Shown here in pieces: positions 1,161 through 16,410 of a stretch of 32,000 bases of DNA (position 1 is its first letter; each line of letters begins with the position of its first letter). A program made the translations under genes and the position numbers. The notes under the pieces are model-generated. The model was not told the DNA's origin, did not search any database, and saw only the letters and a program-made list of their open reading frames with translations. The DNA lies in assembly GCF_000025925.1 (NCBI RefSeq), contig NC_014033.1, positions 900,001 to 932,000 on the forward strand, in the 5' to 3' direction. The DNA is from Xylanibacter ruminicola 23 (lineage in GTDB: Bacteria; Bacteroidota; Bacteroidia; Bacteroidales; Bacteroidaceae).

Positions 1161-1198
1161 CAACATCTTTGACATTCTGGTCGATAATTTGACATGCT

Positions 1199-1270
1199 GG
1201 TCGATTCATCTAATGGTTAGGATACAAGATTCTCAATCTTGGCATAGGGGTTCGATTCCCCTATCGACTA
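1199..1270 (+). tRNA. tRNA-Glu (anticodon CTC), copy 2, identical to copy 1
   Basis: The 72 nt are identical to 1089-1160, in tandem with a 110-bp period. Confidence 0.85.
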
Positions 1271-1279
1271 CAAAACATG

Positions 1280-1307
1280 AGCTCCCGTTTTTACGGGAGC
1301 TTTTTTC
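1280..1307 (+). terminator. intrinsic terminator after the tRNA cluster
   Basis: Stem agctcccg (1280-1287) / cgggagct (1294-1301), 6-nt loop, followed by a T-run. Confidence 0.7.
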
Positions 1308-1329
1308 ATTCCCTAAAACTAATGTTCGT

Positions 1330-1998
1330 ATGATGTTTCCCGAAGTACATAACAGCGCGCAGCTTACTGAGCTGATTAGCAGCATTGGCTTTTTGCCCTT
1401 GCTCGATAGTGGTATTCGTGGTTTCTCGGCCGAAGAGATTGTAGCTGACGATTGTCGTTATGTAGTGTTCAGCGATGGCGGTTGGGATTGGCCGCTGTGG
1501 AAGTGGAAGGGTAGCATCATCACCGAGGGGCATCATGTGTATGGTAAGTTCTTTGCTGGCAAGGCAGGCTTTATCAGTCGTGAGTGGTGGCCCGATTTCT
1601 GTAACTACCGCCGCAGCAAGTATCCAGCGCCCCAGGAGGGCAGTATTGATGAAGCTATCCTCTTTACCTTAGAGCAGGAGGGCAGTCTGATTACCCGCGA
1701 GCTGCGCAGCCAGTGCGGTTTCACCGGTCCTAAGATGCGTAGTAAGTTCGATGGCTACGTTACCCGCCTGCAGATGGCCACCCGTATCGTTACCGAAGAT
1801 TTTGTGTATCCCCTCGACCGTCACGGTCGTGAGTACGGCTGGGGCTGGTCGCTCCTCACCACACCCGAGCGCCTCTATGGTCGCGCTGCCACCCAGTGCC
1901 CCCGCACTCCCGAAGAATCCTTCCAGCGCATCTTCGCCCACATGCAAACCATCTGCCCCCAAGCCTCCGACAAACAACTCCTTAAAATGCTGAAATAA
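1330..1998 (+). CDS. conserved hypothetical protein, possibly an AlkZ-related / winged-helix protein
   Basis: The track ORF 1189..1998 overlaps tRNA-Glu copy 2 and the terminator, so I trimmed it to the first ATG after the terminator (MMFPEVHNSAQL...). The resemblance to the short Bacteroidales AlkZ-related family is from memory only. Confidence 0.55.
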   Translation: MMFPEVHNSAQLTELISSIGFLPLLDSGIRGFSAEEIVADDCRYVVFSDGGWDWPLWKWKGSIITEGHHVYGKFFAGKAGFISREWWPDFCNYRRSKYPAPQEGSIDEAILFTLEQEGSLITRELRSQCGFTGPKMRSKFDGYVTRLQMATRIVTEDFVYPLDRHGREYGWGWSLLTTPERLYGRAATQCPRTPEESFQRIFAHMQTICPQASDKQLLKMLK

Positions 1999-2050
1999 TA
2001 GTGTAATATTGTTTACAAAATGCACTATCGCACCAACGTTAACGGCAAGA

Positions 2051-2959
2051 TTAGTCGTTATAATGTTCAAGCATTTTCTGTATTGCCGCCTTGATTTCTT
2101 CGCGGACATACTGCGGTTCTAAAACTTCCAACTTTTCCCTATGCCATAAAAGCTGCTGATAGAAGTTAAAGCATGGAACAAGCCTGTATTCAAAAATGCT
2201 CCATTCAGGATTGATCTCAACTTCCTTTTGTGATTCGTGGATAGGCAGTGTCCTTACATATTCCACCTGTTGTCCGTAAACCTTTATCCTTATTATCTCA
2301 GGCTTTTGTTCGTCAGAGTGATTGGCTCCGAAACTGCCGTCAAAGTACTCTTCAACACTTATATCGTTAGTAGGGGCCATTTTCTCCTCTGTCAATGTGA
2401 TATTGTCCATTCGCTCCAATGCGAAAATTGAAATGCCATGATGATGATTATCAGGCTCTGCCACCAGATACCAGCGCTGTTCCCATGTGCGTAGGAAGTA
2501 AGGGATAAGTAATTGATGCTTAACCGTTTGTCGGTTAAACGAGTAATACTCGCACTCTATACCTTTATTTTTGTCAATGGCTTCCAGTATTATCTGCACG
2601 TTCTCTACTCCAGTAGGAGCCTCTGTAAGCATAATCTTGTCGCGATGTTTCAGGGCTAGTTCGGTCATACCTTCAATATGATAGGCTGAGAGTAGATAGT
2701 CAAATAGAGAATCGTTTTCACCATAGAATCCTTTGTTGCGATGCAACTCGTTTTTCCCCGTTCTGGTATTATACTCTATATAACAAGGGAAATTTAACTC
2801 AATATAATCCTTATATCTCAGAAATGTTCGAGGTAGAATATCATCACCTTCATATATAGAAGAGTACTGATAACTCTCATTTATCTCCTTCAGAGTCATT
2901 GCACCTTTCCGCTCCAGCAGATTAATCAGGTAGAGGCATTTTCTTATTTTAGGTTGCAT
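2051..2959 (-). CDS. WYL domain-containing transcriptional regulator (BrxR/CapW-like architecture: N-terminal wHTH, central WYL, C-terminal extension)
   Basis: 302 aa. The N-terminal KCLYLINLLERKGAMTLKEINESY is HTH-like. The literal WYL motif sits in ...RTWEQRWYLVAEPDNHH... at aa 163-165. The size is typical of BrxR/CapW-type regulators. Confidence 0.8.
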   Translation of the reverse strand: MQPKIRKCLYLINLLERKGAMTLKEINESYQYSSIYEGDDILPRTFLRYKDYIELNFPCYIEYNTRTGKNELHRNKGFYGENDSLFDYLLSAYHIEGMTELALKHRDKIMLTEAPTGVENVQIILEAIDKNKGIECEYYSFNRQTVKHQLLIPYFLRTWEQRWYLVAEPDNHHHGISIFALERMDNITLTEEKMAPTNDISVEEYFDGSFGANHSDEQKPEIIRIKVYGQQVEYVRTLPIHESQKEVEINPEWSIFEYRLVPCFNFYQQLLWHREKLEVLEPQYVREEIKAAIQKMLEHYND

Positions 2960-2977
2960 AGGCAGTTATTTTTGTGG

Positions 2978-2985
2978 CAAAGATA
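2978..2985 (-). promoter_or_regulatory. -7 box (TATCTTTG on the minus strand) for the WYL regulator gene
   Basis: TAnnTTTG match 18 nt upstream of the ATG at 2959. Confidence 0.5.
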
Positions 2986-3197
2986 GTTATTATTTTTATA
3001 TACACAAAGGATTATGCTCTTCTTTTTCATTATAAACAGTTTTTTTATTTGCATATTGAGTTCTAGTGTGATGTTCCTCCAAAGCTTCATCCAATTTGTT
3101 GTGCTTGACAATTCCTGGGTATATCCAGGTTGAATGAATTGAAGCATGAAGAACTGGCTATTCATCTTAGAAATAGGGAGTGGGTCTTTTTTTATTT

Positions 3198-3371
3198 TCA
3201 TTTTATCTTTCCTTTATCTATAGAAAATTTTGATGCCCAGTCTTCATAACCACATGAAGGACAAGTTGCCTTAAACTGTGATGAGTCGTAAATTATATCA
3301 CCACCATTACACCACACGACAGGACTGCCACATTTGGGACAAATTAAATCAACAACAATAATACTACTCAT
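3198..3371 (-). CDS. 57-aa zinc-ribbon protein (absent from the ORF track, below its length cut-off)
   Basis: My own translation: MSSIIVVDLICPKCGSPVVWCNGGDIIYDSSQFKATCPSCGYEDWASKFSIDKGKIK. It has two CxxC pairs (CPKC, CPSC). It starts 6 nt after the stop of the upstream 167-aa gene. Confidence 0.6.
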   Translation of the reverse strand: MSSIIVVDLICPKCGSPVVWCNGGDIIYDSSQFKATCPSCGYEDWASKFSIDKGKIK

Positions 3372-3377
3372 AGCACT

Positions 3378-3881
3378 TTAATTTTTATTATTCGATTCCT
3401 TACTTTTACTAATACTCTCCATCTCTTCAACAAATTTCCCAATCAGATTATTGGGATCTTCTACCACATGAAGGAATTCATTAAAAAAGTGTGGTATTCT
3501 CTTATAATTAATTCCATCTTTAGTTACTTCCACATAAACTATTCTTCTTCCAGTATCAAATTCGTGGTTTGTTACTAAGGGAACAATTCTTATCTGATAC
3601 TTGGGCCTACAGATAATTCCTAGGTTCAATAAAAGCTCAGCCATTTTATCTATATTGTCCCAGATATCTTTTGGAAATAGAAATATAGAATAACCTTCAG
3701 GAATATCGACATCTTTCCACTCTTCCGAGTCTAGATATTTTTTATAAGAGTTAGAGTATGGAACAATGACGCCAAGTTTAATTAATTCTGGAGGCAATGG
3801 ATCTCTGTGAACAACGACACTGCCCCATAATACTATGGAAGGACAATATTCATTGTATTTTCGAATTAATTCCATTTTCAT
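3378..3881 (-). CDS. hypothetical protein, 167 aa, no recognisable domain
   Basis: Long ORF in an AT-rich region with its own -7 box 27 nt upstream. Acidic/lysine-rich C-terminal tail. No TM segment. Confidence 0.7.
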   Translation of the reverse strand: MKMELIRKYNEYCPSIVLWGSVVVHRDPLPPELIKLGVIVPYSNSYKKYLDSEEWKDVDIPEGYSIFLFPKDIWDNIDKMAELLLNLGIICRPKYQIRIVPLVTNHEFDTGRRIVYVEVTKDGINYKRIPHFFNEFLHVVEDPNNLIGKFVEEMESISKSKESNNKN

Positions 3882-3908
3882 ATTACCTTTGCTTCATGTT
3901 TCTGGCTG

Positions 3909-3916
3909 CAAAGATA
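3909..3916 (-). promoter_or_regulatory. -7 box (TATCTTTG on the minus strand) for the 167-aa / zinc-ribbon unit
   Basis: TAnnTTTG match 27 nt upstream of the ATG at 3881. Confidence 0.5.
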
Positions 3917-3945
3917 AAAAGAGAGGCAGACATTTTGTGTCCGCC
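3914..3945 (-). terminator. intrinsic terminator ending the 559-aa/342-aa operon
   Basis: Minus strand reads ggcggaca-caaaa-tgtctgcc (one G-U pair), followed by tctcttttta. It lies 20 nt after the stop at 3965. Confidence 0.6.
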
Positions 3946-3964
3946 CCCCAAAAACTTATCAGGA

Positions 3965-4993
3965 TTAAATCAGGATGGTATAAAACAATGATGCTAATGA
4001 GATTGCCAATGCGATTATTGAGACGATCTTATAAACTGCCAATTGTTTCTTCATCTTTTCAAAAATAGCATTTTGATTCTCTATAAAGCCATCTGTCTGC
4101 TCTTGAATCTCCGCAGTTTTATGTTCTGCTTCTTTCTGAAATTCTGATAATGCAATTGCTGTTTGCTCTTTAATCTGAGAAACAAATTCCTCTTGTGCCT
4201 TAACTAATTCTTCGGATGATCGTTTTATCTCGGCAAGAGAATCAGTAATGTGTTTCTCTATTCTATCTAGTGATTCATTTTGTTCATTCTTCAATAACGA
4301 AGATGCTTCTTCTTGATTTTTTTTGATATCTGTAATAGTCACAGATAGCTTATCGTTGAGGTCTTTAATATATGAATCATGGGATTTTTCTAATGACTCA
4401 GCTTCATGTATTATTGTCTGAAGTTTATCATTTATTTTTTTTTGAGTATTTTGCCATTCTGACTGCAATAGAGATAGCCCCTCCTCAAGCTGCTGGTACT
4501 CTTTTGCTTCGGCCTCTACATTCTCGGCAAATATATCAATTAATTCAGAAATACTTATTTCACCCTTTTTGATCTTTTCTGTTACATCATTTAACCTTTT
4601 AACAGCTTTTTCACTTGCTCTTTTATCTCTTCGCTGATTAAATGTTATTATTCCCATACATATGATCATGTTTTTAATAATAATCAGAGTATTGGAAAGA
4701 TTATCATTAAGGTGACCAATGACCTTGGATGTATTCTGAAAAGAACTAGTAAAATCTGTATTAATTGATATCAAAGCATCTTTTACCGAATTCGTTGATG
4801 GAGGTGCCCAATTTGCCCCCAAGATGTTGCCAACCTTTTCTATATCAGCCCCTCCATTATAAATCGTATTCTGTAAGGTTGATATACTACTTTTGATGGT
4901 AGAAACATTCTTCTCTAGTCCTGCAAGTTCTTTCTGTAAATCTGCAAGAGACTTTGGGGGTTCTTTCTGATTTGGCAATAATTCTTTATTCAT
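3965..4993 (-). CDS. tail-anchored coiled-coil membrane protein, 342 aa, function unknown
   Basis: The K/E/Q-rich heptad-like sequence across aa 120-315 suggests a long coiled coil. The C-terminal LAVYKIVSIIALAISLASLFYTILI is a terminal TM helix. A second hydrophobic patch, LIIIKNMIICMGIITF, lies at aa 103-118. ATGA overlap with the upstream gene. Confidence 0.8.
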   Translation of the reverse strand: MNKELLPNQKEPPKSLADLQKELAGLEKNVSTIKSSISTLQNTIYNGGADIEKVGNILGANWAPPSTNSVKDALISINTDFTSSFQNTSKVIGHLNDNLSNTLIIIKNMIICMGIITFNQRRDKRASEKAVKRLNDVTEKIKKGEISISELIDIFAENVEAEAKEYQQLEEGLSLLQSEWQNTQKKINDKLQTIIHEAESLEKSHDSYIKDLNDKLSVTITDIKKNQEEASSLLKNEQNESLDRIEKHITDSLAEIKRSSEELVKAQEEFVSQIKEQTAIALSEFQKEAEHKTAEIQEQTDGFIENQNAIFEKMKKQLAVYKIVSIIALAISLASLFYTILI

Positions 4994-6669
4994 TTCTTTA
5001 TACTTTTTCTAAGATTATATAATTTTATTTCGTTTTCACTCTGGATTTTATCGATTTCTTTTAATGTCGAATTCATCTCTTCGTTATGTTCTTTTTCAAT
5101 CTTTTCAATCTCCTGCCGTTCTTTTTGAACTTCTACAAAACTATTTATATAGGAATACATATATTGGTATGTTCCAAATAATGCAACATCAACTTTGGCG
5201 GAAGATACATGCACATAATAATCCGACAATTCTTTTATCTTATCCATATTGGTATTACGTTCAGCTAAAGAGTTTTCTCGCATCTGATTGTTCTTATACT
5301 GAATAAAAAGATAAGTAATGAGTATTCCCGCTAGACCTACAATAATTGAAACCAACACATTTGCCACATCATCAGACATAGAGCCTAAAATGGGTAAATT
5401 CGTTGATAAGAATTTTGAAATGGCTTCAGTTAGGAAAATGCCTATACAAGTTGAAATGCCTGCAAATATTATTTTCCCTGCAGCCTGCATTCTTTCCTCC
5501 ATTGGCTTGGAGTTATCGCATAGTACTTTAACGGCCCTTCCTAAAGAAAGGGTTGCTTCTCTAATTATTATTACTATGCGTTTTACGGTTGTTATAAAAC
5601 TATTAATTATAAATGTAACAATAGTGGAAATGATACCAGATATTCCGCCTTCTAAGGCAGAATTACCGATTTCCTTTATGTGACTTTGAATTTTATAACG
5701 AATATTTTTCAAGCCCTCAATAATATATAAGATAAAGGATCGGAACCCCTCCAATGTCCCTTCTTTATACTTTTTTATTGCATCTTTAATAATCAAAAAA
5801 CTCTCTTCTACCATTATTTTTAATGCACAACCTAAAGCCTGGCGTAAGGCCAACTTAAGTCCAGCTTTCGCTCCTTCTTTACCTAATTCTTGACCATGAT
5901 AGATAATCCTTTCTTTGGTTGTAGGCTCGTGTTCTTTAACGGCTTCATCAGACCTTCTTTGAGCTGCATTAACACGCCGATTGTCCATTCCTCGATCTTC
6001 TTTATTTGTAAGTTCTGGATTTCGGCTACTTTTTTGAGTTTCATAATCGTATTTATCTTTCTCTCCTAATGATTCATTTAAGGAACCATCGACAACGTTT
6101 AAATTTCTTTTATCTGTACCAAACTTATTTCTTTTTTCTTTATTCTGCATCCAACCTCCCTTTTTATGATATTGTTTTGCGGAGAAAAAATGGTCAACAT
6201 GAGGATTTGTCGTTTCTCTGCCTGTTAATTGATCCTTATCCTGTCCATTAACTTTTCTTTCACTTTTTATCTTCTCTCTTTGTCTAGCCGTAAAATCGTA
6301 ATCTTCTCTATTAAATTTTTCACTATCTTTTGCAAAAATATCTTTTTCGGCATTATGCTGGGTTGTCACTGCACCACCATCTTTATCATTAAACATGGCT
6401 CTAGAGAGACCGAAGGGCCCCAAAATACTGTCTATCACAATGTCTTCGCATTCGTTTGCCAAGTTAAAAACTTGCTCATTGGCGTCGACATTCTTGTTTT
6501 TTTGATTTATTGTTTCTAGTTCATCAAGAAGTCTTTGCTCTTCCTGTTCCAGAGAATTATAAATCAAATCCCAATCTGCATTCTCAATTTCTTCAAAATC
6601 CTTATCCGTCATTTCTGCAATTTCAGAAATTACGATGTCATCATTTGCGTAGTTCTTTAAATCATCCAT
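4990..6669 (-). CDS. 559-aa protein: acidic N-terminus, nuclease-like D-H...N...N motif region, 3-4 TM helices, C-terminal coiled coil; function unknown
   Basis: aa 148-205 read LTGRETTNPHVDHFFSAKQYH...KRNLNVVDGSLNESLGEKD, which resembles a cysteine-less HNH/beta-beta-alpha-Me signature. Hydrophobic helices sit at about aa 338-362, 396-420 and 434-456. The C-terminus is rich in E/K. Confidence 0.85.
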   Translation of the reverse strand: MDDLKNYANDDIVISEIAEMTDKDFEEIENADWDLIYNSLEQEEQRLLDELETINQKNKNVDANEQVFNLANECEDIVIDSILGPFGLSRAMFNDKDGGAVTTQHNAEKDIFAKDSEKFNREDYDFTARQREKIKSERKVNGQDKDQLTGRETTNPHVDHFFSAKQYHKKGGWMQNKEKRNKFGTDKRNLNVVDGSLNESLGEKDKYDYETQKSSRNPELTNKEDRGMDNRRVNAAQRRSDEAVKEHEPTTKERIIYHGQELGKEGAKAGLKLALRQALGCALKIMVEESFLIIKDAIKKYKEGTLEGFRSFILYIIEGLKNIRYKIQSHIKEIGNSALEGGISGIISTIVTFIINSFITTVKRIVIIIREATLSLGRAVKVLCDNSKPMEERMQAAGKIIFAGISTCIGIFLTEAISKFLSTNLPILGSMSDDVANVLVSIIVGLAGILITYLFIQYKNNQMRENSLAERNTNMDKIKELSDYYVHVSSAKVDVALFGTYQYMYSYINSFVEVQKERQEIEKIEKEHNEEMNSTLKEIDKIQSENEIKLYNLRKSIKK

Positions 6670-6832
6670 GACCTTATTGTTTTACGTTCCATATGTTTGC
6701 GACAAGAAGTGTCTCTTCCTCCTCCATATATACTTGTTTGTCAAGAGAACAATTTCTTATAACAATACTTATCAGCCTCCATGTAATATGTCAAATGAGC
6801 GTTGCCGCTTCAGCTCTTTTAGATTGTTTGGG

Positions 6833-6840
6833 CAAATATA
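6833..6840 (-). promoter_or_regulatory. candidate -7 box (TATATTTG on the minus strand) for the 559-aa/342-aa operon
   Basis: This is the only TAnnTTTG match between 6670 and 6913 on the minus strand. It implies a leader of about 155 nt. Confidence 0.4.
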
Positions 6841-6913
6841 GGGATTATTTCTGAAACATCCAAGTATTTGTGCTTTTTTTATATCAAAGAGTGAGTTTTC
6901 TATGTTAAACACT

Positions 6914-7141
6914 CTATGAAATCAGAAAGCAAACTCCCAAAGCAAACAGATGTCTGTATCGCCATAGGGCAGGGAGCTCCAAGTAAACTTCTTCCTCAGT
7001 GAGGGAGATTGATATGATGGCACATCCTATCCAGATCAAAGATGTGAAAGTGTATATTCTAGGGACACCAGCAAATACCATAATTGTTACAACAACCATG
7101 TGGAGGTATGGAATACCTTTTGTTACAATATCTAACGTCAT
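6914..7141 (-). CDS. possible small membrane protein (75 aa, two hydrophobic helices)
   Basis: Starts 17 nt after the M48 gene stop on the same strand. The hydrophobic stretches HMVVVTIMVFAGV and LIWIGCAIISISL are present. No homology recognised. Confidence 0.35.
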   Translation of the reverse strand: MTLDIVTKGIPYLHMVVVTIMVFAGVPRIYTFTSLIWIGCAIISISLTEEEVYLELPALWRYRHLFALGVCFLIS

Positions 7142-7157
7142 AATCTTTTTCTTCAGT

Positions 7158-7943
7158 TCAACAATCTATATTTCTTAATTTTCTGTATTGCCAGGAGTTT
7201 TTCCAACGGTCTATCTCCCAGGCACGATATACTTGTTGAGGATGGGAGTTGAATGCGATGCGACAGTTCTGTTGCAAACGATTAAGCCAAGAGGATTCTT
7301 TGAAATGATGATATTCACGAGCCTGCTCAACGAGCTGATAAGGATTCCCGCTAATCTCCTTCAGACCGCATGTTGACTTGAGCATTGTGGTTTGAAAAGC
7401 AAACTCACCTACAACTGCAGCAGCACAACGATCAGCAGAAAGCTCACTCTTACGAGACCAATAATGCATAGCCATCAAAACGGGACCTAATGTGGCATAT
7501 GAGAGGATGTCAAGCCAATAACCCAACTCGCTGATTGTTCTAAGAAGCGTTGAATATAATGTATGATGGCAAAGAATATGTCCGCACTCATGGGCCATAA
7601 CGCATCTAAGTTCATCAAGCTCCATTCTTTCTACGATTGCACTGCTCAAAGCTATGAAGGTGTTATTTTCTCCATATGTAAATGCATTCATATGTGGATC
7701 GTTATAGATGTAGAGTTCTGGTTCAGTAATGCCTACTTTTTCAACTACCTCCTTAAAAGCTATGTATAGAGCCGGATAGTTCGTGGAACTAACTCTGACA
7801 AAGGAACCAAGGCACATACCTCGATATATCCTTTCAAGGCCATGCTCCATACAATAGCTTATAAGCTCATTATATCCCTTTAGGCTCTGTAAGGCTCTTA
7901 TTGCCTTCGCATCTTCGGGATGCATGATATCACGTACTTCCAT
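7158..7943 (-). CDS. M48 family zinc metallopeptidase (soluble type)
   Basis: HEXXH motif in VMAHECGHILCHH, with a downstream SELSADR glutamate motif typical of M48/HtpX-like peptidases. No TM segments. Confidence 0.88.
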   Translation of the reverse strand: MEVRDIMHPEDAKAIRALQSLKGYNELISYCMEHGLERIYRGMCLGSFVRVSSTNYPALYIAFKEVVEKVGITEPELYIYNDPHMNAFTYGENNTFIALSSAIVERMELDELRCVMAHECGHILCHHTLYSTLLRTISELGYWLDILSYATLGPVLMAMHYWSRKSELSADRCAAAVVGEFAFQTTMLKSTCGLKEISGNPYQLVEQAREYHHFKESSWLNRLQQNCRIAFNSHPQQVYRAWEIDRWKNSWQYRKLRNIDC

Positions 7944-7946
7944 AAT

Positions 7947-8693
7947 TTATGCTTCTGATAGTTCAACATGACGATAACGCATACCCGCAATCATTATTAC
8001 TGCAGGAATAACAACACGATAAGCAGGCGAGGCGATGTCGCTGATAGTCCAGCATGCCAACATTCCCCAACCAATAGGGCCAGCTAACATACCAACATAT
8101 CTCTCAAAGGTTATCATACCCATCATAGAGATAGTACGTCCAAAAATCATATTGGCAATACGAGTGATAATGAATGTCATTAATTCCACGAAAAGATATC
8201 TATTGGTACGTAGAGAAATCATCAACGAGAATACGATTTGCTGTCGATTCAGGTTCTTATGTGATATACCTGCTTTGTCAGCAAGATCTCTTAGTTCTTC
8301 ATCAGAGAGTTTCTCTGTAGTTTTCTCGCACAGCGTTGTCAGTAATCGCTGTTCCATCATATTAACGTTATCATTGTAAGCCACACTCACTTTAAGTTTC
8401 TTGCAAACTCTTCTTAAGATGGTCTCATAGCTATCTGCCTCACCTTTCTTATATAATGTATGTACAGTGTTACTACCAAACTTACGAAATTCTTCGCTAA
8501 TCTCCTTTGCCATTAGATTCATTTTTTCAGGGTAGCAGTTTAGGTAGGCATCGGTATTTGATAACTGTTCACTAAATCTCAATTCACCTTGTTTATTATG
8601 TGTGAGTATGTCGCACAATGTACGAAGGTCGTCATTCTGGCACTTTGCCAAGAATAGTAAATCTTTGTCTTCTTTCATAACTATATCCTCCAT
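7947..8693 (-). CDS. YaaW/UPF0174-like protein with a DUF3944-like N-terminus and a hydrophobic C-terminal half
   Basis: The N-terminal DKDLLFLAKCQNDDLRTLCDILT and the C-terminal ...GMLAGPIGWGMLACWTISDIASPAYRVVIPAVIMIAGMRY resemble the E. coli YaaW family (recalled from memory). It ends 3 nt before the M48 gene. Confidence 0.65.
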   Translation of the reverse strand: MEDIVMKEDKDLLFLAKCQNDDLRTLCDILTHNKQGELRFSEQLSNTDAYLNCYPEKMNLMAKEISEEFRKFGSNTVHTLYKKGEADSYETILRRVCKKLKVSVAYNDNVNMMEQRLLTTLCEKTTEKLSDEELRDLADKAGISHKNLNRQQIVFSLMISLRTNRYLFVELMTFIITRIANMIFGRTISMMGMITFERYVGMLAGPIGWGMLACWTISDIASPAYRVVIPAVIMIAGMRYRHVELSEA

Positions 8694-8709
8694 TTTAAGT
8701 TTCTGGGGG

Positions 8710-8717
8710 CAAAATTA
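8710..8717 (-). promoter_or_regulatory. -7 box (TAATTTTG on the minus strand) for the YaaW-like/M48 operon
   Basis: TAnnTTTG match 16 nt upstream of the ATG at 8693. Confidence 0.5.
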
Positions 8718-8725
8718 TACTATGA

Positions 8726-8746
8726 GTCGGACTAAACCTGTCCGAC
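8726..8746. promoter_or_regulatory. perfect inverted repeat GTCGGAC-N7-GTCCGAC over the -33 region of the YaaW-like/M48 promoter (candidate operator)
   Basis: 7-bp arms at 8726-8732 and 8740-8746, located 9-29 nt upstream of the -7 box. Confidence 0.4.
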
Positions 8747-8800
8747 CTAAGATAATATTCAAAAATTAAGTTATGATATGCCGTTATTGATACAAAAATA

Positions 8801-8945
8801 CCCTCAGGCTTCGATTTGAAACCTGAGGGTGATAGGATAGAGCCTGCTGCAGTAAGCGTGGCGGGCCGCGCAAGTGCAGGTCCTTGGCTATCTACATGGC
8901 GCCCATGCACGATGTCGCACCTAGGGCTGTTACAATCGCAGTAGC
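8801..8945. repeat. direct repeat copy 1: truncated 3' end of a smalltalk-type ORF plus its downstream structured region and terminator hairpin
   Basis: Aligns base-for-base with 9418-9562 at an offset of 617 nt. There are 3 mismatches in the 91 non-coding nt and 7 in the 54 coding nt. The hairpin ccctcagg/cctgaggg lies at 8801-8829. Confidence 0.9.
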
Positions 8946-8948
8946 TAC

Positions 8949-9410
8949 ATCTCTAACAAGATTGCTGCTTCTGAATGGGGTGATGGCGTTGTTAAACAAT
9001 TGGCTGATTATATCGAAAGAACTAGCCCAGAAGCTAAAGGATTTTCTGATAAGAACCTTTGGCGAATGAAGCAGTTCTATGAGACATATAATGGCATGGA
9101 CGAAAAACTCTCAGCACTGCTGAGACAAATTAATTGGACAAACAATCTAACTATTTTAAGTCGTACCAAATCAACCGAAGAAAGATACTTTTATTTGAAA
9201 CAATGTATCCAGGAGAGATGGACTAAGCGAGAACAAAATCGTCAGATAGATAGTGCTCTTTATGAAAGATCTAAAGTAGGAACTCCAAAACTCTCACCAC
9301 TGGTGAGAGAAATAGCTCCACAAGCAGAACAGATATTTAGAGACCAATATGTACTGGAGTTTTTTGGTGGAAAAGAGTATAAATATGAGAATGATCTGCC
9401 TGGCTTTATA
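8949..9410 (+). pseudogene. internal fragment of a DUF1016/YhcG-family (PDDEXK nuclease) gene, truncated at both ends
   Basis: The translation ...ISNKIAASEWGDGVVKQLADYIERTSPEAKGFSDKNLWRMKQFYETY...RDQYVLEFFGGKEYKYENDL matches the YhcG N-terminal domain and the first residues of the nuclease domain. There is no start codon (the track start at 9000 is a TTG inside the frame). The catalytic C-terminal half is missing. Confidence 0.7.
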
Positions 9411-9417
9411 ATAAAAT

Positions 9418-9562
9418 CCCCCAGGCTTCGCTTTGAAACCTGAGGGTGATAGGATAGAGCCTGCTGCAGTATGCGTGGCGGGCCGCGCAAGTGCAGGTCC
9501 TTGGCTATCTACATGGCGCCCATGCAACTCGTGGCGCCTAGGGCCGTTACAATCGCAGTAGC
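9418..9562. repeat. direct repeat copy 2 (belongs to the intact smalltalk-type ORF)
   Basis: See copy 1. In this copy the hairpin has one mismatch (cccccagg/cctgaggg). Confidence 0.9.
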
Positions 9563-9613
9563 GATACTTGCTATCATCTGTATGATGAACTTAAATGTTT
9601 CTTTCTTTGTCAT
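9509..9613 (-). CDS. 34-aa smalltalk-type peptide (signal-peptide-like, C-terminal lipobox); absent from the ORF track
   Basis: My own translation: MTKKETFKFIIQMIASIATAIVTALGATSCMGAM. It resembles the Bacteroidales small proteins that NCBI names smalltalk protein (from memory). The peptide of the truncated paralog at 8892-8945 is conserved through synonymous changes only. Confidence 0.6.
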   Translation of the reverse strand: MTKKETFKFIIQMIASIATAIVTALGATSCMGAM

Positions 9614-9729
9614 AATGGTTAAAGGTTTAATAGGTTAATGTTTAATCTTTTAATCGTTTCTTTAGTACGCTTGCCTAAGCAAGAATGTTTCATGTTTCAT
9701 GTAAAGGGTGGGGCCTAAGCCCCAAGCCC

Positions 9730-10287
9730 TTAATCACCAATCGGCTCGTTATGATTTCCGCCGCCACCGGTATTACCACCTTGGTTGCCGCCACCAGTGT
9801 TTCCACCGGTATTGCCTCCGCCATTGCTTGGCTCGTCGGGATCCTCAACCGTACCTGGGTCTGTCGAGGTTACACGCTTAATCTCCTTACCATCGCGGTC
9901 GTAGCAGGTAATCTGGATGGCTGTACCTGCCAGCTCCTCTTTCAGATCCACCGCTGGGGTGAAGATGATTCGACGACTGGTTACCAGTCCGGCTTTCACC
10001 TCATCAACCTTGGCTACACTCTTGGCGCGGATGCCGAATCGCATGGTTCCCAAACCTGGCAGCGCAACCGAGTGACCCTCTGTGGCCCAAGCTTTAATCA
10101 CTTCGCCAGCAGCATCCCAGCAGGCCTGCATAATGCCTTTGCTAACTCCGCTGCGCAGGGCAGCCTCCTTAATCACCTTGTCCTGCGAGAGTGAGGTGTA
10201 CAACTCCGGCATCATGATGTAGCGATAAGTGCCCTCATACTTGCCAATCTTCTGCAACTTTTCCTGTGCTTTAACTTTAAGTGCCAT
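9730..10287 (-). CDS. HU-family DNA-binding protein (Bacteroidales long form) with a Gly/Asn-rich C-terminal tail
   Basis: The segment ...VALPGLGTMRFGIRAKSVAKVDEVKAGLVTSRRIIFTPAVDLKEEL is an HU/IHF-like fold signature. The tail reads SNGGGNTGGNTGGGNQGGNTGGGGNHNEP. Confidence 0.8.
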   Translation of the reverse strand: MALKVKAQEKLQKIGKYEGTYRYIMMPELYTSLSQDKVIKEAALRSGVSKGIMQACWDAAGEVIKAWATEGHSVALPGLGTMRFGIRAKSVAKVDEVKAGLVTSRRIIFTPAVDLKEELAGTAIQITCYDRDGKEIKRVTSTDPGTVEDPDEPSNGGGNTGGNTGGGNQGGNTGGGGNHNEPIGD

Positions 10288-10384
10288 AATTCTAATTTTG
10301 TTTTTGTGTTGTTGTAAATAAAAATGTTTAATGTTTAATCTTTAATGTTTAATGTCTCAACTCCGATGTAGATTTGCGCCCTCG

Positions 10385-10435
10385 TGTGGGAGAATTTCTT
10401 AGTGCACGTGGGAAATAGTTTTGCCGCACGTGGCC
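10385..10435. promoter_or_regulatory. three YGTGGSM boxes at exact 22-bp spacing in the HU gene leader (two contain the CACGTG palindrome)
   Basis: tgtggga at 10385, cgtggga at 10407 and cgtggcc at 10429. Boxes 2 and 3 share gcacgtgg. Confidence 0.35.
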
Positions 10436-10463
10436 GCCATCTGTCTCATTCATTTCAACGGTG

Positions 10464-10471
10464 CAAAGGTA
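10464..10471 (-). promoter_or_regulatory. -7 box (TACCTTTG on the minus strand), candidate promoter of the HU-family gene
   Basis: TAnnTTTG match. It implies a leader of about 170 nt ahead of the ATG at 10287. Confidence 0.4.
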
Positions 10472-10543
10472 CGATATTTTGATTGCGGTCTACGAATAAT
10501 TCTCCAACTTTTTTCATTTTTCTCGAAAAAAAATTTCTGTGCA

Positions 10544-10573
10544 GTCAATAGTCATTAATGTCAATAGTCAATA
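10544..10573 (+). repeat. array of four GTCAWTA heptamers (left arm)
   Basis: gtcaata at 10544, gtcatta at 10551, gtcaata at 10560, gtcaata at 10567. Confidence 0.85.
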
Positions 10574-10599
10574 AGCCTCGAACAACCCTGTATTTTAAA

Positions 10600-10637
10600 T
10601 AAAAGAATATATATAATATATTATATATATTCTTTTA
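10600..10637. repeat. perfect 38-bp A/T-rich palindrome
   Basis: taaaagaatatatataata|tattatatatattctttta. I checked base by base that the right half is the reverse complement of the left half. Confidence 0.9.
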
Positions 10638-10663
10638 ATACTTACCCACATTTCCACTACTCT

Positions 10664-10694
10664 TAATGACTAATGACTAATGACTACTAATGAC
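10664..10694 (-). repeat. array of four TAATGAC heptamers (GTCATTA in inverted orientation; right arm)
   Basis: taatgac at 10664, 10671, 10678 and 10688. The array centre is about 60 bp from the palindrome centre, matching the left arm. Confidence 0.85.
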
Positions 10695-10772
10695 TGAAAT
10701 ATAGCTCGCAGGATATTGAGTTTTTTTCTAAAGAAAAACCCGAAAAAAATTGGATGCTATCCAAAAAAGATG

Positions 10773-10780
10773 TATATTTG
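10773..10780 (+). promoter_or_regulatory. -7 box (TATATTTG) for the kinase-like gene
   Basis: TAnnTTTG match 23 nt upstream of the ATG at 10804. Confidence 0.5.
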
Positions 10781-10803
10781 CAGCGATAAATTTTAAATGA
10801 TAA

Positions 10804-11487
10804 ATGAATGGATATTGTTCTGAACGATTATCACAAGAAAATGAACGCTATCAAGATAGCGAAGGTTGCATATTGGAAAGCGCATCCGCTTTCGCGTGCG
10901 GAGTCCTTAAAGAGATTGAGGAACTTGCGGGAACAACGTCTTGCAAATCTCTCCAACTGGTAAGGCTCAAGAAATGGGCCCAAGAGCAAGGCTGCTGGTA
11001 TAATGATCGCAGCCTTTTTGGCGATTATTTTGATCGTGGCTCAGAGAACGAAACTTATTTGTCACCAGATCTTAATGATATTATAAAACTTAACGACTTC
11101 CGTTATTCTGACGATAATCTCACTTCTTTCTTTGAACGTATCAAGGCTCATAATACTTACTTCCCTGATTGTGCATATCGTATGATTGGCTTTGCAGAGA
11201 ATATCCAAGGAAAGATTTGTGCGGTCCTTGTTCAACCATTTATCTCTGATGCACGATTAGCTACAAAAGAAGAAATTTACGATGAGTTTATTCGCCTTGG
11301 CTTTAGTCCGGAAGATAATGGTGAATACTTTACTAACGGTAGGCATGATATTTTTGATGCCGTTGATGGTAATGTACTCGTTGACGATGAGGGACATCTG
11401 TATTTTATTGATACCATCATATACAAATCGGGTACAGGCGGTGTAGAGGCATACAACAGTCTTTCGCCCAGAGCAAAATCGAAATAA
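10804..11487 (+). CDS. atypical protein-kinase-like protein (resembles the polyvalent-protein kinase domain family)
   Basis: GSENETYLSPDLNDIIKLND looks like a Gly-loop plus Lys. HDIFDAVDGNVLVDDEGHLYFIDT looks like a D-x4-N catalytic loop followed by a metal-binding Asp. The assignment rests on motifs only. Confidence 0.55.
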   Translation: MNGYCSERLSQENERYQDSEGCILESASAFACGVLKEIEELAGTTSCKSLQLVRLKKWAQEQGCWYNDRSLFGDYFDRGSENETYLSPDLNDIIKLNDFRYSDDNLTSFFERIKAHNTYFPDCAYRMIGFAENIQGKICAVLVQPFISDARLATKEEIYDEFIRLGFSPEDNGEYFTNGRHDIFDAVDGNVLVDDEGHLYFIDTIIYKSGTGGVEAYNSLSPRAKSK

Positions 11488-11612
11488 CAATCAATATAGC
11501 TTTACCTAGCAGGTAATGATGGTTAATGAGTAGAAACATTAGTCATCATTTAAAAAACCTTAAACTCGCAAATTTTAAAGAATCACCATACTTGAAACAC
11601 ACATTTTTTATT

Positions 11613-11620
11613 TATCTTTG
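11613..11620 (+). promoter_or_regulatory. -7 box (TATCTTTG) for the HIRAN gene
   Basis: TAnnTTTG match 41 nt upstream of the ATG at 11662. Confidence 0.45.
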
Positions 11621-11661
11621 CCATCGTTTTTGGGCTAACTTACCCTATACCAACTTCAACT

Positions 11662-12663
11662 ATGAGTATTATACAACTAAATATAGTAGGTATTCCTTAC
11701 CGTAAAGATCTTTATGGGCATGTCGGCGAGTTTCTTGCTGAGGCGCCTGGGCATGCTATGACTCTCAGACCTGAAAGCGCTAACGACAGCGACAAGGTTG
11801 CCGTTCGTGCTTACGACTGGCTGGGACGACACGTAGGATATGTATCAAGTCCAGAGCTACCGAGAGCATGGGGAGCGCTACGATGCAGCGAACAAAACAA
11901 ATTAAGAGGTATGATAGTTGGTTCTAATATCGAGCACCCGTGTGTAGCGTTCGAGTGTGTGGTGTTAGATTATAAAGGCCCTGTAACCGACTTGTATCCG
12001 CAAAAAATATTTCTGGATTGGAAATATACTGGTCCTGTACTCGATATTCCAGAAGAGTTTGATAACCTGGTTTATATGCGCGATGAAATAATAGACCGAC
12101 TAACCGAACGTGATGAATGGGATGATGAAGCACAGGCGCACTTTATCTCGCTAGTAAAACGTTTTTCCGCTTATCTGAAATACGATATTTCGGGCGAAAT
12201 GAGCGACTATCGAAAACACCTGATAGAGATGCTTACTGATATCGGTGACTGCGAGTTTCAGGAGGTCATCGACGAACTTACAATGTCAGCTGGACGTACA
12301 GGTCGTGAGACAACGTGTGGTAGTGTGCTGGAATTTTGGAAAGAGCAGATGCAGTCGGCCGATACACGAAAACATCTGATGGTGCACCAACGAAAGTATA
12401 ATGCCAAGACGGTAGAAAAGGAACTGGAAGAGTTTCCCGAAAACTTGTACTTTGAATGGAAGGCTAACCCCGAACGCTTTGTTTCAAAACTATATTATCG
12501 GCATATTCCTCGCGAGGTTATATGGCGATTTGTTTCAGGCATAGCATTTGTAGAAATGACAAATGCTATCGCCAAGAAAGCCGAAGATGAAAAGGCTATA
12601 CACGAAAAGCGTAATGTGATATTAACAGGCGATAATGCTAGTTATATAGAAAATAAAGAATAA
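11662..12663 (+). CDS. HIRAN domain-containing protein (N-terminal HIRAN, about 230 aa of unknown C-terminal region)
   Basis: LNIVGIPYRKDLYGHVGEF...MTLRPESANDSDKVAVRAYDWLGRHVGYVS follows the HIRAN pattern (G..Y......G..L.L.RE..N..D.NAI.V.......GYV). Confidence 0.65.
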   Translation: MSIIQLNIVGIPYRKDLYGHVGEFLAEAPGHAMTLRPESANDSDKVAVRAYDWLGRHVGYVSSPELPRAWGALRCSEQNKLRGMIVGSNIEHPCVAFECVVLDYKGPVTDLYPQKIFLDWKYTGPVLDIPEEFDNLVYMRDEIIDRLTERDEWDDEAQAHFISLVKRFSAYLKYDISGEMSDYRKHLIEMLTDIGDCEFQEVIDELTMSAGRTGRETTCGSVLEFWKEQMQSADTRKHLMVHQRKYNAKTVEKELEEFPENLYFEWKANPERFVSKLYYRHIPREVIWRFVSGIAFVEMTNAIAKKAEDEKAIHEKRNVILTGDNASYIENKE

Positions 12664-12672
12664 TAAGATACA

Positions 12673-13185
12673 ATGGCAAGAAGAATAATAATGACGGGTG
12701 ATGAGGCGCAGTATATAGAGCGTCGTGGTGCGAATGCACAGCCCGATGACGACCGCGAGATACGTATGGAGGGGCGGCACGCCCGCTACGAGGAGTGCTC
12801 GGTAGCCCAGGTGGCTCATTTCCCTATTAACAACAATGAGGCAGCGGGCAAACAGTGGTTCGAGTTCCTGATTAGAAATGGATTTATTGCTCCTGATACC
12901 GAGATGAGCTGCTGGCAGTATCTGATGGGCTTCTCAACCAATCAGCCAACTGACATTAAACCGATAGAGTGGATGAAAACAGTTGAGACGGCACGACTGA
13001 TGCTGGTAAAGGTGAATAACGAGGTGCTTGCGAAGAAACAGATGACCATAGCACACATGAACGAACTGGCAGCACAATGCTTTACCAAACAGGGGCAATC
13101 GCTTAAATTGGCCAAACCACGAAAAGAGTTATCTGCCGATGCTGATGCAATAGAGAATTTTATTCCGACCATTTCCGACCTTTAA
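12673..13185 (+). CDS. hypothetical protein, 170 aa
   Basis: ORF in the same operon-like run, 9 nt after the HIRAN gene stop. Its N-terminus repeats the C-terminal motif of the HIRAN protein. Confidence 0.6.
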   Translation: MARRIIMTGDEAQYIERRGANAQPDDDREIRMEGRHARYEECSVAQVAHFPINNNEAAGKQWFEFLIRNGFIAPDTEMSCWQYLMGFSTNQPTDIKPIEWMKTVETARLMLVKVNNEVLAKKQMTIAHMNELAAQCFTKQGQSLKLAKPRKELSADADAIENFIPTISDL

Positions 13186-13221
13186 CCGAAACACCTGTAA
13201 ATACTAGGTTTTCGACATATT

Positions 13222-13272
13222 TCTCCCGACTGTTTCCGACTGCGAAATGGTCGGGAGATACCTTTATTTTTC
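13222..13272 (+). terminator. intrinsic terminator after the kinase-like/HIRAN/170-aa unit
   Basis: Perfect 9-bp stem tctcccgac (13222-13230) / gtcgggaga (13250-13258), followed by tacctttatttttct. Confidence 0.65.
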
Positions 13273-13296
13273 TGCTTTTCAATGCCAAAAAGTGCT

Positions 13297-13304
13297 TAAT
13301 TTTG
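13297..13304 (+). promoter_or_regulatory. -7 box (TAATTTTG) for the replication-module operon
   Basis: TAnnTTTG match upstream of the ATG at 13368. Confidence 0.45.
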
Positions 13305-13367
13305 CACTCGTAAACCTGAGGCTTCTCGGTGATTCACAAGTGTTAATTTGATTTGTTGATACACATT

Positions 13368-13652
13368 ATGGAAACAAAGATTTTAAAAGTGGTACGCCAG
13401 GGCGAGGCCTTTAGCGTACAGTCATCAAAGAGTGACAACGGTACCATTCAGAAGTGTAACATTGTGCTGCGCGAGATGGGTGGTAGCAAGTTCGAAAACG
13501 AGTATGTGTGCGCCATGCTGGGCAATCTGGCGGCGTGCAGGTTCTACGAAGGTGATGTGGTGGCAGCCACACTTCGTTTCTCTACACATGAGTATCAGGG
13601 GCAGGTGTTCCAAGAAATACTTGCGACCGATATCGTAGTTATTAAACATTAA
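13368..13652 (+). CDS. small OB-fold-like protein (DUF3127-like pattern), 94 aa
   Basis: Trimmed to the ATG (METKILKV...), because the track start at 13353 is a TTG. Length and pattern (N-terminal beta strand, ...GDVVAATLRFSTHEYQGQVFQEILATDI) resemble DUF3127. The call is weak. Confidence 0.5.
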   Translation: METKILKVVRQGEAFSVQSSKSDNGTIQKCNIVLREMGGSKFENEYVCAMLGNLAACRFYEGDVVAATLRFSTHEYQGQVFQEILATDIVVIKH

Positions 13653-13739
13653 TTTTCTGAGTTGAGGGTGAGGAGGATATTCTCGAGTAAATGGCCAAGG
13701 AATCCGAAACTTCTTCTCGCTTAAACACTTAGAAAAAAT

Positions 13740-14129
13740 ATGAAAACAAGAAAAAGCAGAATTTTAGGAGAACAGGTAATGGTTGAAGGTCTGATGACCT
13801 TTGGCAAGTTGGAAACAGGACTGCGCACACTTGATTTTGAGTGCTGCGAGGATGTGGCGGCCGAGGCTTTTAAGGGTAAGTTCGTGGTGCAGGGCATGCG
13901 TGATGGTAACGTGTATATGAGCGAGTTGCCTAAGCGACCAAAGAACAAGCCGCTGTTTCGTGAGGATAACTGCTCGTTGTCGCACGGTCGTAACGGTCGC
14001 TACTATTTTGTATTCTCGCTGGATGATGATGAGGTAGGGCAGTTACCCCAGAAACTAACTGAACAGGCAAACAACATAGCCAGCAAAATGATAAGGAAGA
14101 TACTATTGGAAGGAGGTGAGCTGGGATGA
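13740..14129 (+). CDS. hypothetical protein, 129 aa
   Basis: ATGA stop/start overlap with the downstream primase gene suggests translational coupling. Confidence 0.55.
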   Translation: MKTRKSRILGEQVMVEGLMTFGKLETGLRTLDFECCEDVAAEAFKGKFVVQGMRDGNVYMSELPKRPKNKPLFREDNCSLSHGRNGRYYFVFSLDDDEVGQLPQKLTEQANNIASKMIRKILLEGGELG

Positions 14130-16381: not shown

Positions 16382-16410
16382 TCATTATAGTCAATAGTCA
16401 TTAGTCATTA
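16381..16410 (+). repeat. third array of four GTCAWTA heptamers
   Basis: gtcatta at 16381, gtcaata at 16390, gtcatta at 16397, gtcatta at 16404. The array starts at the last base of the primase stop codon. Confidence 0.85.

Follow-up and report, generated by a model that had tools for sequence, protein, structure and literature searches.

SNIPE is a membrane-bound protein that joins a DUF4041 domain to a GIY-YIG nuclease and cuts lambda DNA during injection (10.1101/2025.11.03.685801). The protein becomes toxic once its membrane helix is removed, tethering has been proposed to prevent autoimmunity, and SNIPE illustrates that attaching a nuclease to the membrane can serve self/non-self discrimination (10.1101/2025.11.03.685801). 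PDC-M40 is one of the 145 'phage defence candidates' of PADLOC, nominated by 'guilt-by-embedding' on the ground that its cassette lies inside BREX, DISARM or type I restriction-modification systems (10.1101/2024.01.29.577857). Here we analysed a 32,000-nucleotide stretch of Xylanibacter (Prevotella) ruminicola 23 (contig NC_014033.1, positions 900,001 to 932,000; the window), in which two adjoining minus-strand genes, B and C, form a SUKH-less Bacteroidota variant of the catalogued candidate system PDC-M40. Very probably, gene B encodes a cytoplasmic, cysteine-less His-Me nuclease followed by a helical linker, a two-hairpin membrane domain and a C-terminal helix of about 100 amino acids (aa), belongs to the PDC-M40B family and is coupled with a gene for a tail-anchored protein, C. 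New here are the nuclease assignment, the conserved tail-anchored architecture of the partner, the invariant polar network of the membrane domain and the homologues in jumbo phages.

A first-pass annotation had described the product of gene B as an unusual fusion of an HNH- or HEPN-like motif with membrane helices and a coiled coil. Its observation was confirmed and its interpretation is partly supported. The minus-strand open reading frame (ORF) is genuine, with its ATG start; the residues read at aa 148-205 (nucleotides (nt) 6055-6228) hold letter for letter, and nt 5302-5658 correctly correspond to aa 338-456. The product has 100% the same sequence as WP_013065034.1 / ADE83048.1, for which RefSeq gives only the name 'hypothetical protein'. 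Searches of the protein against Pfam, NCBIfam and PDB sequences assigned no family and gave nothing usable; the PADLOC hidden Markov model for PDC-M40B matches aa 67-493 (E 4.9e-57, 191.9 bits). A search of 5.8 billion proteins found 42 homologues, and a profile built on the N-terminal domain matched, among 1.84 billion cluster representatives (50% identity), 2,526 at E<=1e-3, 554 at E<=1e-10 and 141 at E<=1e-30. The best 150 of these 2,526 matches are mostly 500-580 aa long, and therefore the architecture of gene B is common to them. The fusion is the norm of a large family catalogued by PADLOC as PDC-M40B. This family is distributed across Pseudomonadota, Bacteroidota, Bacillota, Acidobacteriota, Lentisphaerota and Campylobacterota, as well as plasmids and jumbo phages; its occurrence across phyla is patchy and borne on islands and plasmids. 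Matches to 'ECF transporter S component' (the source name of protein P0041), Oleosin and BPD_transp were rejected as compositional, arising from hydrophobic helices. One further protein, P0119 (662 aa), carries an N-terminal extension of about 200 aa (DGNIDPRERE...HADGIVHSNEHAFLEKW) that has a TerB-type look by eye.

The catalytic core is defined by conservation. In an alignment of 159 full-length homologues, mostly representatives of 50%-identity clusters, to which the counts below refer unless another alignment is named, H160, N189 and N198 are each present in every sequence, and position 159 is Asp in 148 and Glu in 11, far beyond what chance would give. The D-H pair and N189 of the motif first noticed are thus retained, whereas the second conserved Asn is N198 rather than N197. 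With regard to the DH, N, N, N, K pattern of the polymorphic-toxin clade Tox-DHNNK, position 201 is Lys in 115 homologues and Leu in gene B itself; N191 is Asn in just 23, so a third conserved core Asn is not evident. The protein contains four Cys residues overall and none within aa 81-260, and therefore represents a cysteine-less His-Me finger, as had been proposed; the core is Cys-free in 135 of the homologues. The four zinc-chelating Cys/His residues of the classical zinc-bound HNH type (McrA, T4 EndoVII) are not found. An insert of 28-30 aa separates DH from the following Asn, resembling the longer DH-to-N spacing in the alignment with endonuclease I (2pu3, E 0.47). Together, these features support the assignment of the module to the HNH / beta-beta-alpha-Me (His-Me finger) nucleases without zinc-binding cysteines. 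The same segment also fits the R-x4-6-H spacing of HEPN RNases, and the first-pass annotation had left the choice between the two open. A HEPN RNase is extremely improbable here. What speaks for it is a single-sequence pattern, R151-ETTNP-H157, in which R151 is kept in 24 of the 159 homologues and H157 in 46. This segment lies on a loop and a beta-strand running into the DH strand, not on a helix of the all-alpha HEPN fold, and HEPN is absent from the Foldseek matches and from Pfam scans of gene B and its homologues. Given the poor conservation of R151 and H157, the HEPN reading was removed.

Structure prediction points in the same direction as conservation. AlphaFold modelled the full-length protein with a predicted local distance difference test score (pLDDT) of 73.9. 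Foldseek matches of this model were dominated by long-helix membrane proteins (TRPM3, NarK, XaxB), none significant, and therefore the N-terminal domain was modelled alone (aa 62-262; pLDDT 87.2, predicted template modelling score (pTM) 0.73). Both models contain a beta-beta-alpha unit composed of strands 156-160 and 190-194 and helix 195-201, in which strand 1 closes with DH, N189 opens strand 2 and the helix carries N198; in the domain model the local pLDDT of this core is 83-95. In such a unit the metal would be bound by D159 and N198, with H160 as general base and N189 stabilising the hairpin. Against the PDB, the domain model gave 31 Foldseek matches at E<=10, every one an HNH/His-Me nuclease, including Cas9 HNH, CBASS Cap5, Vibrio endonuclease I, PtuB and McrA. 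Each of these matches is individually weak. Against BFVD, the top match was a phage-encoded full-length member of the family (E 9e-5), the second a GmrSD_C protein (E 0.05, probability 1.00, root mean square deviation 1.7 A over 66 columns) and the rest dozens of HNH endonucleases. Sub-threshold Pfam matches among 33 homologues likewise comprise GmrSD_C in eight and GH-E in four, and sit on the DH...N...N region in the homologues whose coordinates were checked; the best is GmrSD_C in homologue P0024 (21.5 bits against a cut-off of 23), with the GH-E matches at 14 bits. A profile search of the PDB placed the DH and N..N of the family on the catalytic His and Asn residues of endonuclease I (E 0.47); the full-length family profile gave noise only.

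The nuclease domain is embedded in a longer architecture (Table 1). Residues 1-80 hold 25 D/E against 5 K/R, with leader helices predicted at aa 22-30 and 33-56. The leader is short or absent in proteobacterial homologues, and SUKH-bearing loci tend to have short leaders; that it serves as a cis-acting inhibitor is speculation. Within the nuclease domain, ahead of the HNH core, lies a second invariant motif (G98 and G99 in 159/159, T103 and N106 in 157/159, F86 in 149/159), which falls in a low-confidence loop in both models. The linker is composed of helices 251-267, 271-302, 309-321 and 323-334; in its LRQALG motif R276 and G280 are invariant and Q277 nearly so among 33 aligned sequences, and in the 159-sequence alignment R276 is kept in 82, Q277 in 126 and G280 in 151. 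The membrane domain is modelled as two hairpins, 339-363/365-383 and 390-424/426 onwards, and Kyte-Doolittle peaks fall at aa 341-369, 394-419 and 431-460. Hydrophobicity summed over 19-residue windows on a biological scale, with Hessa-type values, is strong for aa 438-456 (-2.8 kcal/mol) and moderate to marginal for aa 343-361 and 400-418 (about +2.2 each). Charge-free stretches at 341-362, 400-418 and 434-456 are kept across the 159 sequences. The helix at 363-383 (also given as 365-383) is amphipathic and cationic, with K363, R364, R370, E371 and K381 conserved. The 'three or four strongly hydrophobic helices' first described are therefore somewhat overstated: one segment is strong, but two are moderate and one is an amphipathic cationic helix. 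Within the predicted membrane helices (aa 356-370, nt 5560-5604), N356 is present in 159/159 homologues, T361 in 158 and R370 in 151, and E371 and K/R381 are likewise conserved. The distribution of positive charge suggests that both termini of the protein would be cytoplasmic. AlphaFold predicts one unbroken helix from aa 426 to 558, whose stalk has a pLDDT of 74-91. For the predicted C-terminal coiled coil, heptad periodicity exceeds that of shuffled sequences at aa 500-559 (p ~0.007), but not across aa 461-559 as a whole.

Table 1 Features of the B-C locus and its immediate surroundings (positions are those of the window).
Feature	Position (nt)	Strand	Basis
Gene B, 559-aa predicted membrane-anchored HNH-type nuclease, PDC-M40B family	4990-6669	minus	ORF with ATG start, PADLOC match
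Acidic helical N-terminal leader, aa 1-61, variable in family	6487-6669	minus	composition, AlphaFold
Predicted soluble nuclease domain, aa 62-250	5920-6486	minus	domain model pLDDT 87.2, pTM 0.73; Foldseek
Invariant N-terminal motif GPFGL...D..GGxVTTxHN, aa 84-106	6352-6420	minus	conservation
Predicted beta-beta-alpha-Me core, aa 146-205	6055-6234	minus	AlphaFold strands/helix, conservation
Helical linker with LRQALG motif, aa 251-335	5665-5919	minus	AlphaFold, conservation
Predicted membrane domain, two helical hairpins, aa 339-458	5296-5655	minus	AlphaFold, hydrophobicity/charge profile, conservation
C-terminal long helix / coiled-coil stalk, aa 459-559	4993-5295	minus	AlphaFold, heptad test
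Gene C, 342-aa coiled-coil protein with C-terminal membrane anchor	3965-4993	minus	ORF, hydrophobicity, periodicity
Terminator-like hairpin closing the B-C operon	3921-3949	minus	12-bp stem, 7 G-C pairs, T-run after, 16 nt past gene C stop
TATATTTG, fits -7 promoter consensus TAnnTTTG	6833-6840	minus	about 165 nt upstream of gene B ATG, read from sequence
75-aa small membrane protein, possible clade-specific third component	6914-7141	minus	conservation, hydrophobic segment aa 29-47
167-aa ORF between gene C and WYL regulator	3378-3881	minus	no Pfam, NCBIfam or PADLOC match
WYL-WCX transcription regulator (BrxR/CapW-like)	2051-2959	minus	Pfam WYL 8e-11, WCX 3.6e-8; PADLOC WYL 2.9e-27

Gene B does not stand alone. 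The ATG of gene C overlaps the stop codon of gene B (ATGA), and its product is helical with amphipathic periodicity and ends in an anchor at aa 323-341 (nt 3971-4027; hydrophobicity sum -1.8). The -7 promoter element of Bacteroidetes has the consensus TAnnTTTG, which TATATTTG fits, and the DNA around this element is conserved in two related loci (L093 and L094); a sigma-70 promoter scan of the window found matches rarer than in shuffled sequence, as expected of a Bacteroidota genome. Given the ATGA overlap, the terminator-like hairpin and TATATTTG, B-C resembles a self-contained bicistronic operon, and from its layout the two genes look co-transcribed and translationally coupled. The partner is also a feature of the family. 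We collected 89 loci from metagenomes and genomes, 85 after removal of duplicates, and a same-strand ORF follows closely 3' of B in 83 of the 85 (about 220-820 aa, most 290-460 aa), with a hydrophobic C-terminus in 67 of these 83. An iterated partner profile recovers the downstream gene in 71 of the 89 loci and matches that gene alone. The suggestion that B could act as sensor and effector in a single polypeptide thus gives way to that of a conserved, translationally coupled partner. Gene C itself agrees with PDC-M40C in position, size, coiled-coil character and C-terminal anchor; PADLOC gave no match to PDC-M40C at E<=0.1, and the iterated profile scored it at 23.5 bits with a bias of 22.5. 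Its PADLOC matches to ZorA (E 3e-5), JetC and LmuB are confined to the coiled coil and were judged compositional, and its profile matched generic coiled coils only in the PDB. Upstream of B and in the same orientation, a membrane protein of 75-78 aa, 50-72% identical, is found in all four Prevotella-clade loci, and L093 and L094 have a called ORF of about 100 aa between it and B.

The identity of the upstream neighbour in other lineages bears on how dangerous the nuclease might be. The three genes of a Janthinobacterium locus correspond to PDC-M40A, B and C, of which PDC-M40A is an SMI1/KNR4 (SUKH) protein, and a SUKH gene stands upstream of B in 22 of the 89 loci, all of them proteobacterial; SUKH is fused to B in none of 145 representatives. 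SUKH proteins are immunity proteins of HNH-fold toxins, the Tox-DHNNK clade included (PMC3113570, PMC3482391). The early description of the motif as 'DHNNK-like' was therefore a reasonable lead, since about a quarter of the related loci carry a member of the immunity family tied to Tox-DHNNK (PMC3482391), and the association argues that the gene B nuclease may be active and dangerous. In the window, PADLOC, Pfam and a SUKH profile built from the 22 loci found no match to SUKH or PDC-M40A. The 167-aa ORF between gene C and the WYL regulator was considered as a hidden immunity gene and rejected, as it has no family match and related loci have nothing corresponding to it there. Those loci carry other small genes instead, and the ORF appears to be variable cargo.

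The SUKH genes raise the alternative that B-C is a toxin-immunity or addiction cassette of mobile elements, kin to Tox-DHNNK with SUKH, which stabilises plasmids and islands or acts in inter-bacterial conflict. The DH...N...N(xxK) pattern fits the published description of Tox-DHNNK, which lists SUKH immunity (PMC3482391), and besides the 22 SUKH-bearing loci there are homologues on conjugative plasmids and a CTnDOT-like element. Nonetheless, this alternative is distinctly unlikely. Pfam scans of 33 members found no signal peptide and no LXG/WXG, RHS or PAAR secretion or trafficking domain. The nuclease is N-terminal and lies inside a membrane protein instead of forming an exchangeable C-terminal tip, most loci, the window's included, are without an immunity gene, and the conserved partner is a coiled-coil membrane protein rather than a small antitoxin-like protein.

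The genomic surroundings of the family favour defence. A scan of 137 ORFs that neighbour B-C in 41 further loci showed WYL to be the commonest family, with eight matches, alongside type I restriction and methylase subunits, mad2, HEC-06/GmrSD, AbiEii, ZacB and QatD. In the window, a JukA-like DUF3944 gene with an M48 peptidase gene is found on the upstream side of B-C. A WYL-WCX regulator stands two genes downstream, with a 76% identical counterpart in locus L001, and a WYL gene lies directly upstream of B in L009; the WYL-WCX protein probably controls expression of the island. The GC content of the B-C stretch is about 33-40% against about 50% in the flanks, and tRNA genes adjoin. Homologues occur on 24 plasmids, most of them conjugative or mobilisable plasmids of Klebsiella and E. 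coli, as compact B-C or A-B-C cassettes among insertion sequence elements and toxin-antitoxin genes, all annotated as hypothetical; one homologue lies beside Tra genes, and a CTnDOT-like element also carries one. Jumbo Aeromonas phages (about 260 kb) encode a full-length B homologue as well: in LAh10 (L092, MK838116.1) it lies at 3998-5572, and others are found in D3, D6 and D9. The LAh10 protein matches the family profile at E 1.5e-65, keeps the FGL..GGNVTTLHN, DLDH, NL and NRSKG motifs and carries the wrong annotation 'putative cobalamin adenosyltransferase'. No gene resembling C was found near it, and its upstream neighbour encodes a different membrane protein of 336 aa.

Membrane-anchored His-Me nucleases are not confined to immunity, as EndA and NucA serve DNA uptake. 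It is therefore conceivable that B-C is a DNA-processing machine for DNA uptake, conjugative entry exclusion or the handling of chromosomes and plasmids, comparable to EndA, and the homologue beside Tra genes and the presence of the gene in jumbo phages are in line with this. We regard such a role as a shade more doubtful than that of a toxin-immunity cassette, given that the family is patchily distributed on islands and plasmids across phyla, that most loci are neighboured by defence genes and not by competence or transfer genes, and that, in contrast to EndA, the catalytic domain is expected to lie in the cytoplasm.

We favour, with a probability of roughly 45%, the explanation that B-C forms an inner-membrane nuclease complex which acts on incoming DNA, by analogy with SNIPE. 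In this model, B and C would come together at the inner membrane, joined by their membrane segments and by coiled coils in the cytoplasm, and tethering together with an autoinhibited resting state would keep a non-sequence-specific DNase off the nucleoid; in proteobacterial loci the SUKH protein would probably provide a second brake. Foreign DNA crossing the membrane during phage injection or conjugation, or the membrane disturbance that accompanies it, would expose the DNA to the nuclease or activate the nuclease, and the DNA would be cut on entry. The adjoining WYL regulator probably sets expression. Direct defence as the mechanism is put forward slightly more tentatively than the explanation as a whole.

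Several observations weigh against this explanation. The best Foldseek E-value in the PDB is 1.4, so that no single solved structure is a significant match, and no Pfam HNH model scored above threshold for gene B or the homologues scanned. Topology was derived from hydrophobicity and charge, and the three clear hydrophobic segments may also allow an N-in/C-out arrangement. Comparison of the Prevotella-clade C with the proteobacterial C by hhalign gave a probability of 8%, at which homology is not demonstrable. No SUKH protein or other recognisable inhibitor that could account for the sparing of self-DNA is encoded among the window genes, and the jumbo-phage homologues mean that the module is not exclusively a host defence. 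Literature searches on PDC-M40 and the protein accessions found no experimental work on any family member. Furthermore, since N356, T361 and R370 are conserved in the membrane helices, a passive anchor is an insufficient explanation, which suggests that this domain does more than anchor the nuclease; the polar residues hint that it may hold a gate or a site for an ion or lipid, or form an interface between subunits of an oligomer.

The same residues are the starting point of a different account, abortive infection, in which B and C detect damage to the envelope or membrane during infection by way of their membrane and coiled-coil parts, B destroys the host chromosome or opens a pore, and the infected cell dies. 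N356, T361, R370/E371 and K381 are more readily explained by an element that gates or conducts than by a passive anchor, the SUKH inhibitor gene in about a quarter of loci suggests a nuclease dangerous to its host, and toxin-antitoxin and Abi genes are found among the neighbours. The full-length model also weakly matches the alpha-pore-forming toxins XaxB, PaxB and SmhB (E 0.7-2.5), but these matches are non-significant and driven by long helices, and the strict conservation of the catalytic residues marks the nuclease as the effector. Direct defence and suicide are both compatible with the present data; we consider abortive infection unlikely. A bolder extension of the favoured inner-membrane nuclease complex, which we hold to be equally unlikely as a whole, is that B-C represents a second, independently evolved way to cut foreign DNA at the membrane: a His-Me nuclease in a gated module, with N356/T361/R370/E371 as the switch and C as sensor or scaffold, would have spread over six phyla or more and have been taken up by jumbo phages, possibly as a means of superinfection exclusion, and the acidic leader would replace SUKH as a brake in cis in Bacteroidota.

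The wider neighbourhood in the window contains several other elements. A tRNA-Ser and two tRNA-Glu genes, the latter an 80-nt tandem duplicate, lie at 968-1271, and an Rfam scan of the window returned three tRNAs only. Directly after the tRNA cluster is an AlkZ-related gene (1189-1998, plus strand; Pfam E 1.5e-70); the listed ORF begins inside the second tRNA-Glu, and its true start is therefore probably an internal Met near residue 50. The stretch 2000-16400 after the tRNAs holds defence-type genes and an HU-like gene, with low GC in its first part (about 2000-9000), as well as a Kinase-PolyVal gene (10804-11487), a HIRAN protein (11662-12663) and a DUF3987 protein (14126-16381), and looks like an integrated mobile island. 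Within it, a JukA-like DUF3944 gene (7947-8693, minus strand; PADLOC JukA E 5e-47) is followed 3 nt on by an M48 zinc peptidase gene (7158-7943, minus strand), which matched no PADLOC JukB model; the pair may be an unrecognised JukA-peptidase variant system. It is also present in L001 and L094 (plus a SprT-like gene) and missing in L093, which keeps the small membrane protein upstream of B. A 150-nt direct repeat, 92% identical (8796-8945 and 9413-9562), flanks a truncated ORF with a DUF1016 N-terminal domain (9000-9443, plus strand); one copy holds a 13-bp terminator-like hairpin (8830-8800), and the pair may represent either a repeat element or what is left of a disrupted gene.

Spatial self/non-self discrimination by a membrane-tethered nuclease has only recently been shown, for SNIPE. 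The present family comprises about 2,500 clusters at 50% identity and reaches clinical Klebsiella and E. coli plasmids and jumbo phages, yet its members are named 'hypothetical' only. Neither the searchable text and supplementary files of the study that nominated PDC-M40 (10.1101/2024.01.29.577857) nor the RefSeq annotation of homologues gives a domain assignment for it, and no HNH system is mentioned in the DefensePredictor paper. With a catalytic domain and a partner protein assigned, this anonymous PADLOC candidate becomes a testable hypothesis with nameable point mutants. If the hypothesis is true, it would extend the defence mechanisms of Prevotella, a genus that is dominant in rumen and gut and has little-studied phage defences; if the nuclease is inactive or the cassette does not protect, B is merely another uncharacterised island gene.

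Compared with described systems, the locus shares with PDC-M40 its gene order, in which a gene for a coiled-coil membrane protein (about 340 aa) comes directly after B, and its setting in a defence island or mobile element. It differs in that PDC-M40A is missing and the downstream gene matches no PDC-M40C model, and the Prevotella clade adds its own 75-aa upstream membrane protein and the acidic leader of B. The best sequence and structure matches of B, all below family thresholds, are the GmrSD_C / DUF1524 HNH proteins (GmrSD, BrxU, HEC-06) and Vibrio endonuclease I, which likewise have His-Me fingers free of cysteine and place an acidic residue ahead of the catalytic His; the corresponding motifs are 'DHIYP' in BrxU and 'EHICP' in HEC-06 (10.1101/2024.01.29.577857). 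In the profile alignment, H160 and N198, separated by a long insert, line up with the His and a later Asn of endonuclease I. However, the DUF262 NTPase partner domain of GmrSD_C/DUF1524 proteins is missing in B, GmrSD_C-type enzymes are soluble and endonuclease I is secreted. Tox-DHNNK, an HNH/EndoVII clade of polymorphic toxins, has by its published description a pattern close to the DH, N, N, (K) of the present family (PMC3113570, PMC3482391), and SUKH is adjacent to B in about a quarter of loci; unlike B, it forms the C-terminal tip of a secreted multidomain toxin with trafficking domains, and its Lys corresponds to position 201, where gene B has Leu in spite of Lys in 115 of 159 homologues. 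Zorya (ZorAB) and Kiwa (KwaAB) resemble B-C in combining a membrane component that bears a long cytoplasmic helical element with a DNA-targeting activity, whereas no MotA/ExbB-type channel domain, ZorB or KwaB was found here and the gene B nuclease is covalently part of the membrane protein. SNIPE and B are not related in sequence or fold, and Pfam finds neither DUF4041 nor GIY-YIG in gene B. SNIPE is a single gene with one N-terminal membrane helix, DUF4041 and a C-terminal GIY-YIG domain, whereas B-C would place an N-terminal His-Me finger ahead of several membrane helices (aa 339-458) and adds a conserved partner gene. Nevertheless, SNIPE is the closest working analogy, since both appear to tether a cytoplasmic nuclease to the inner membrane and to carry an elongated helical region.

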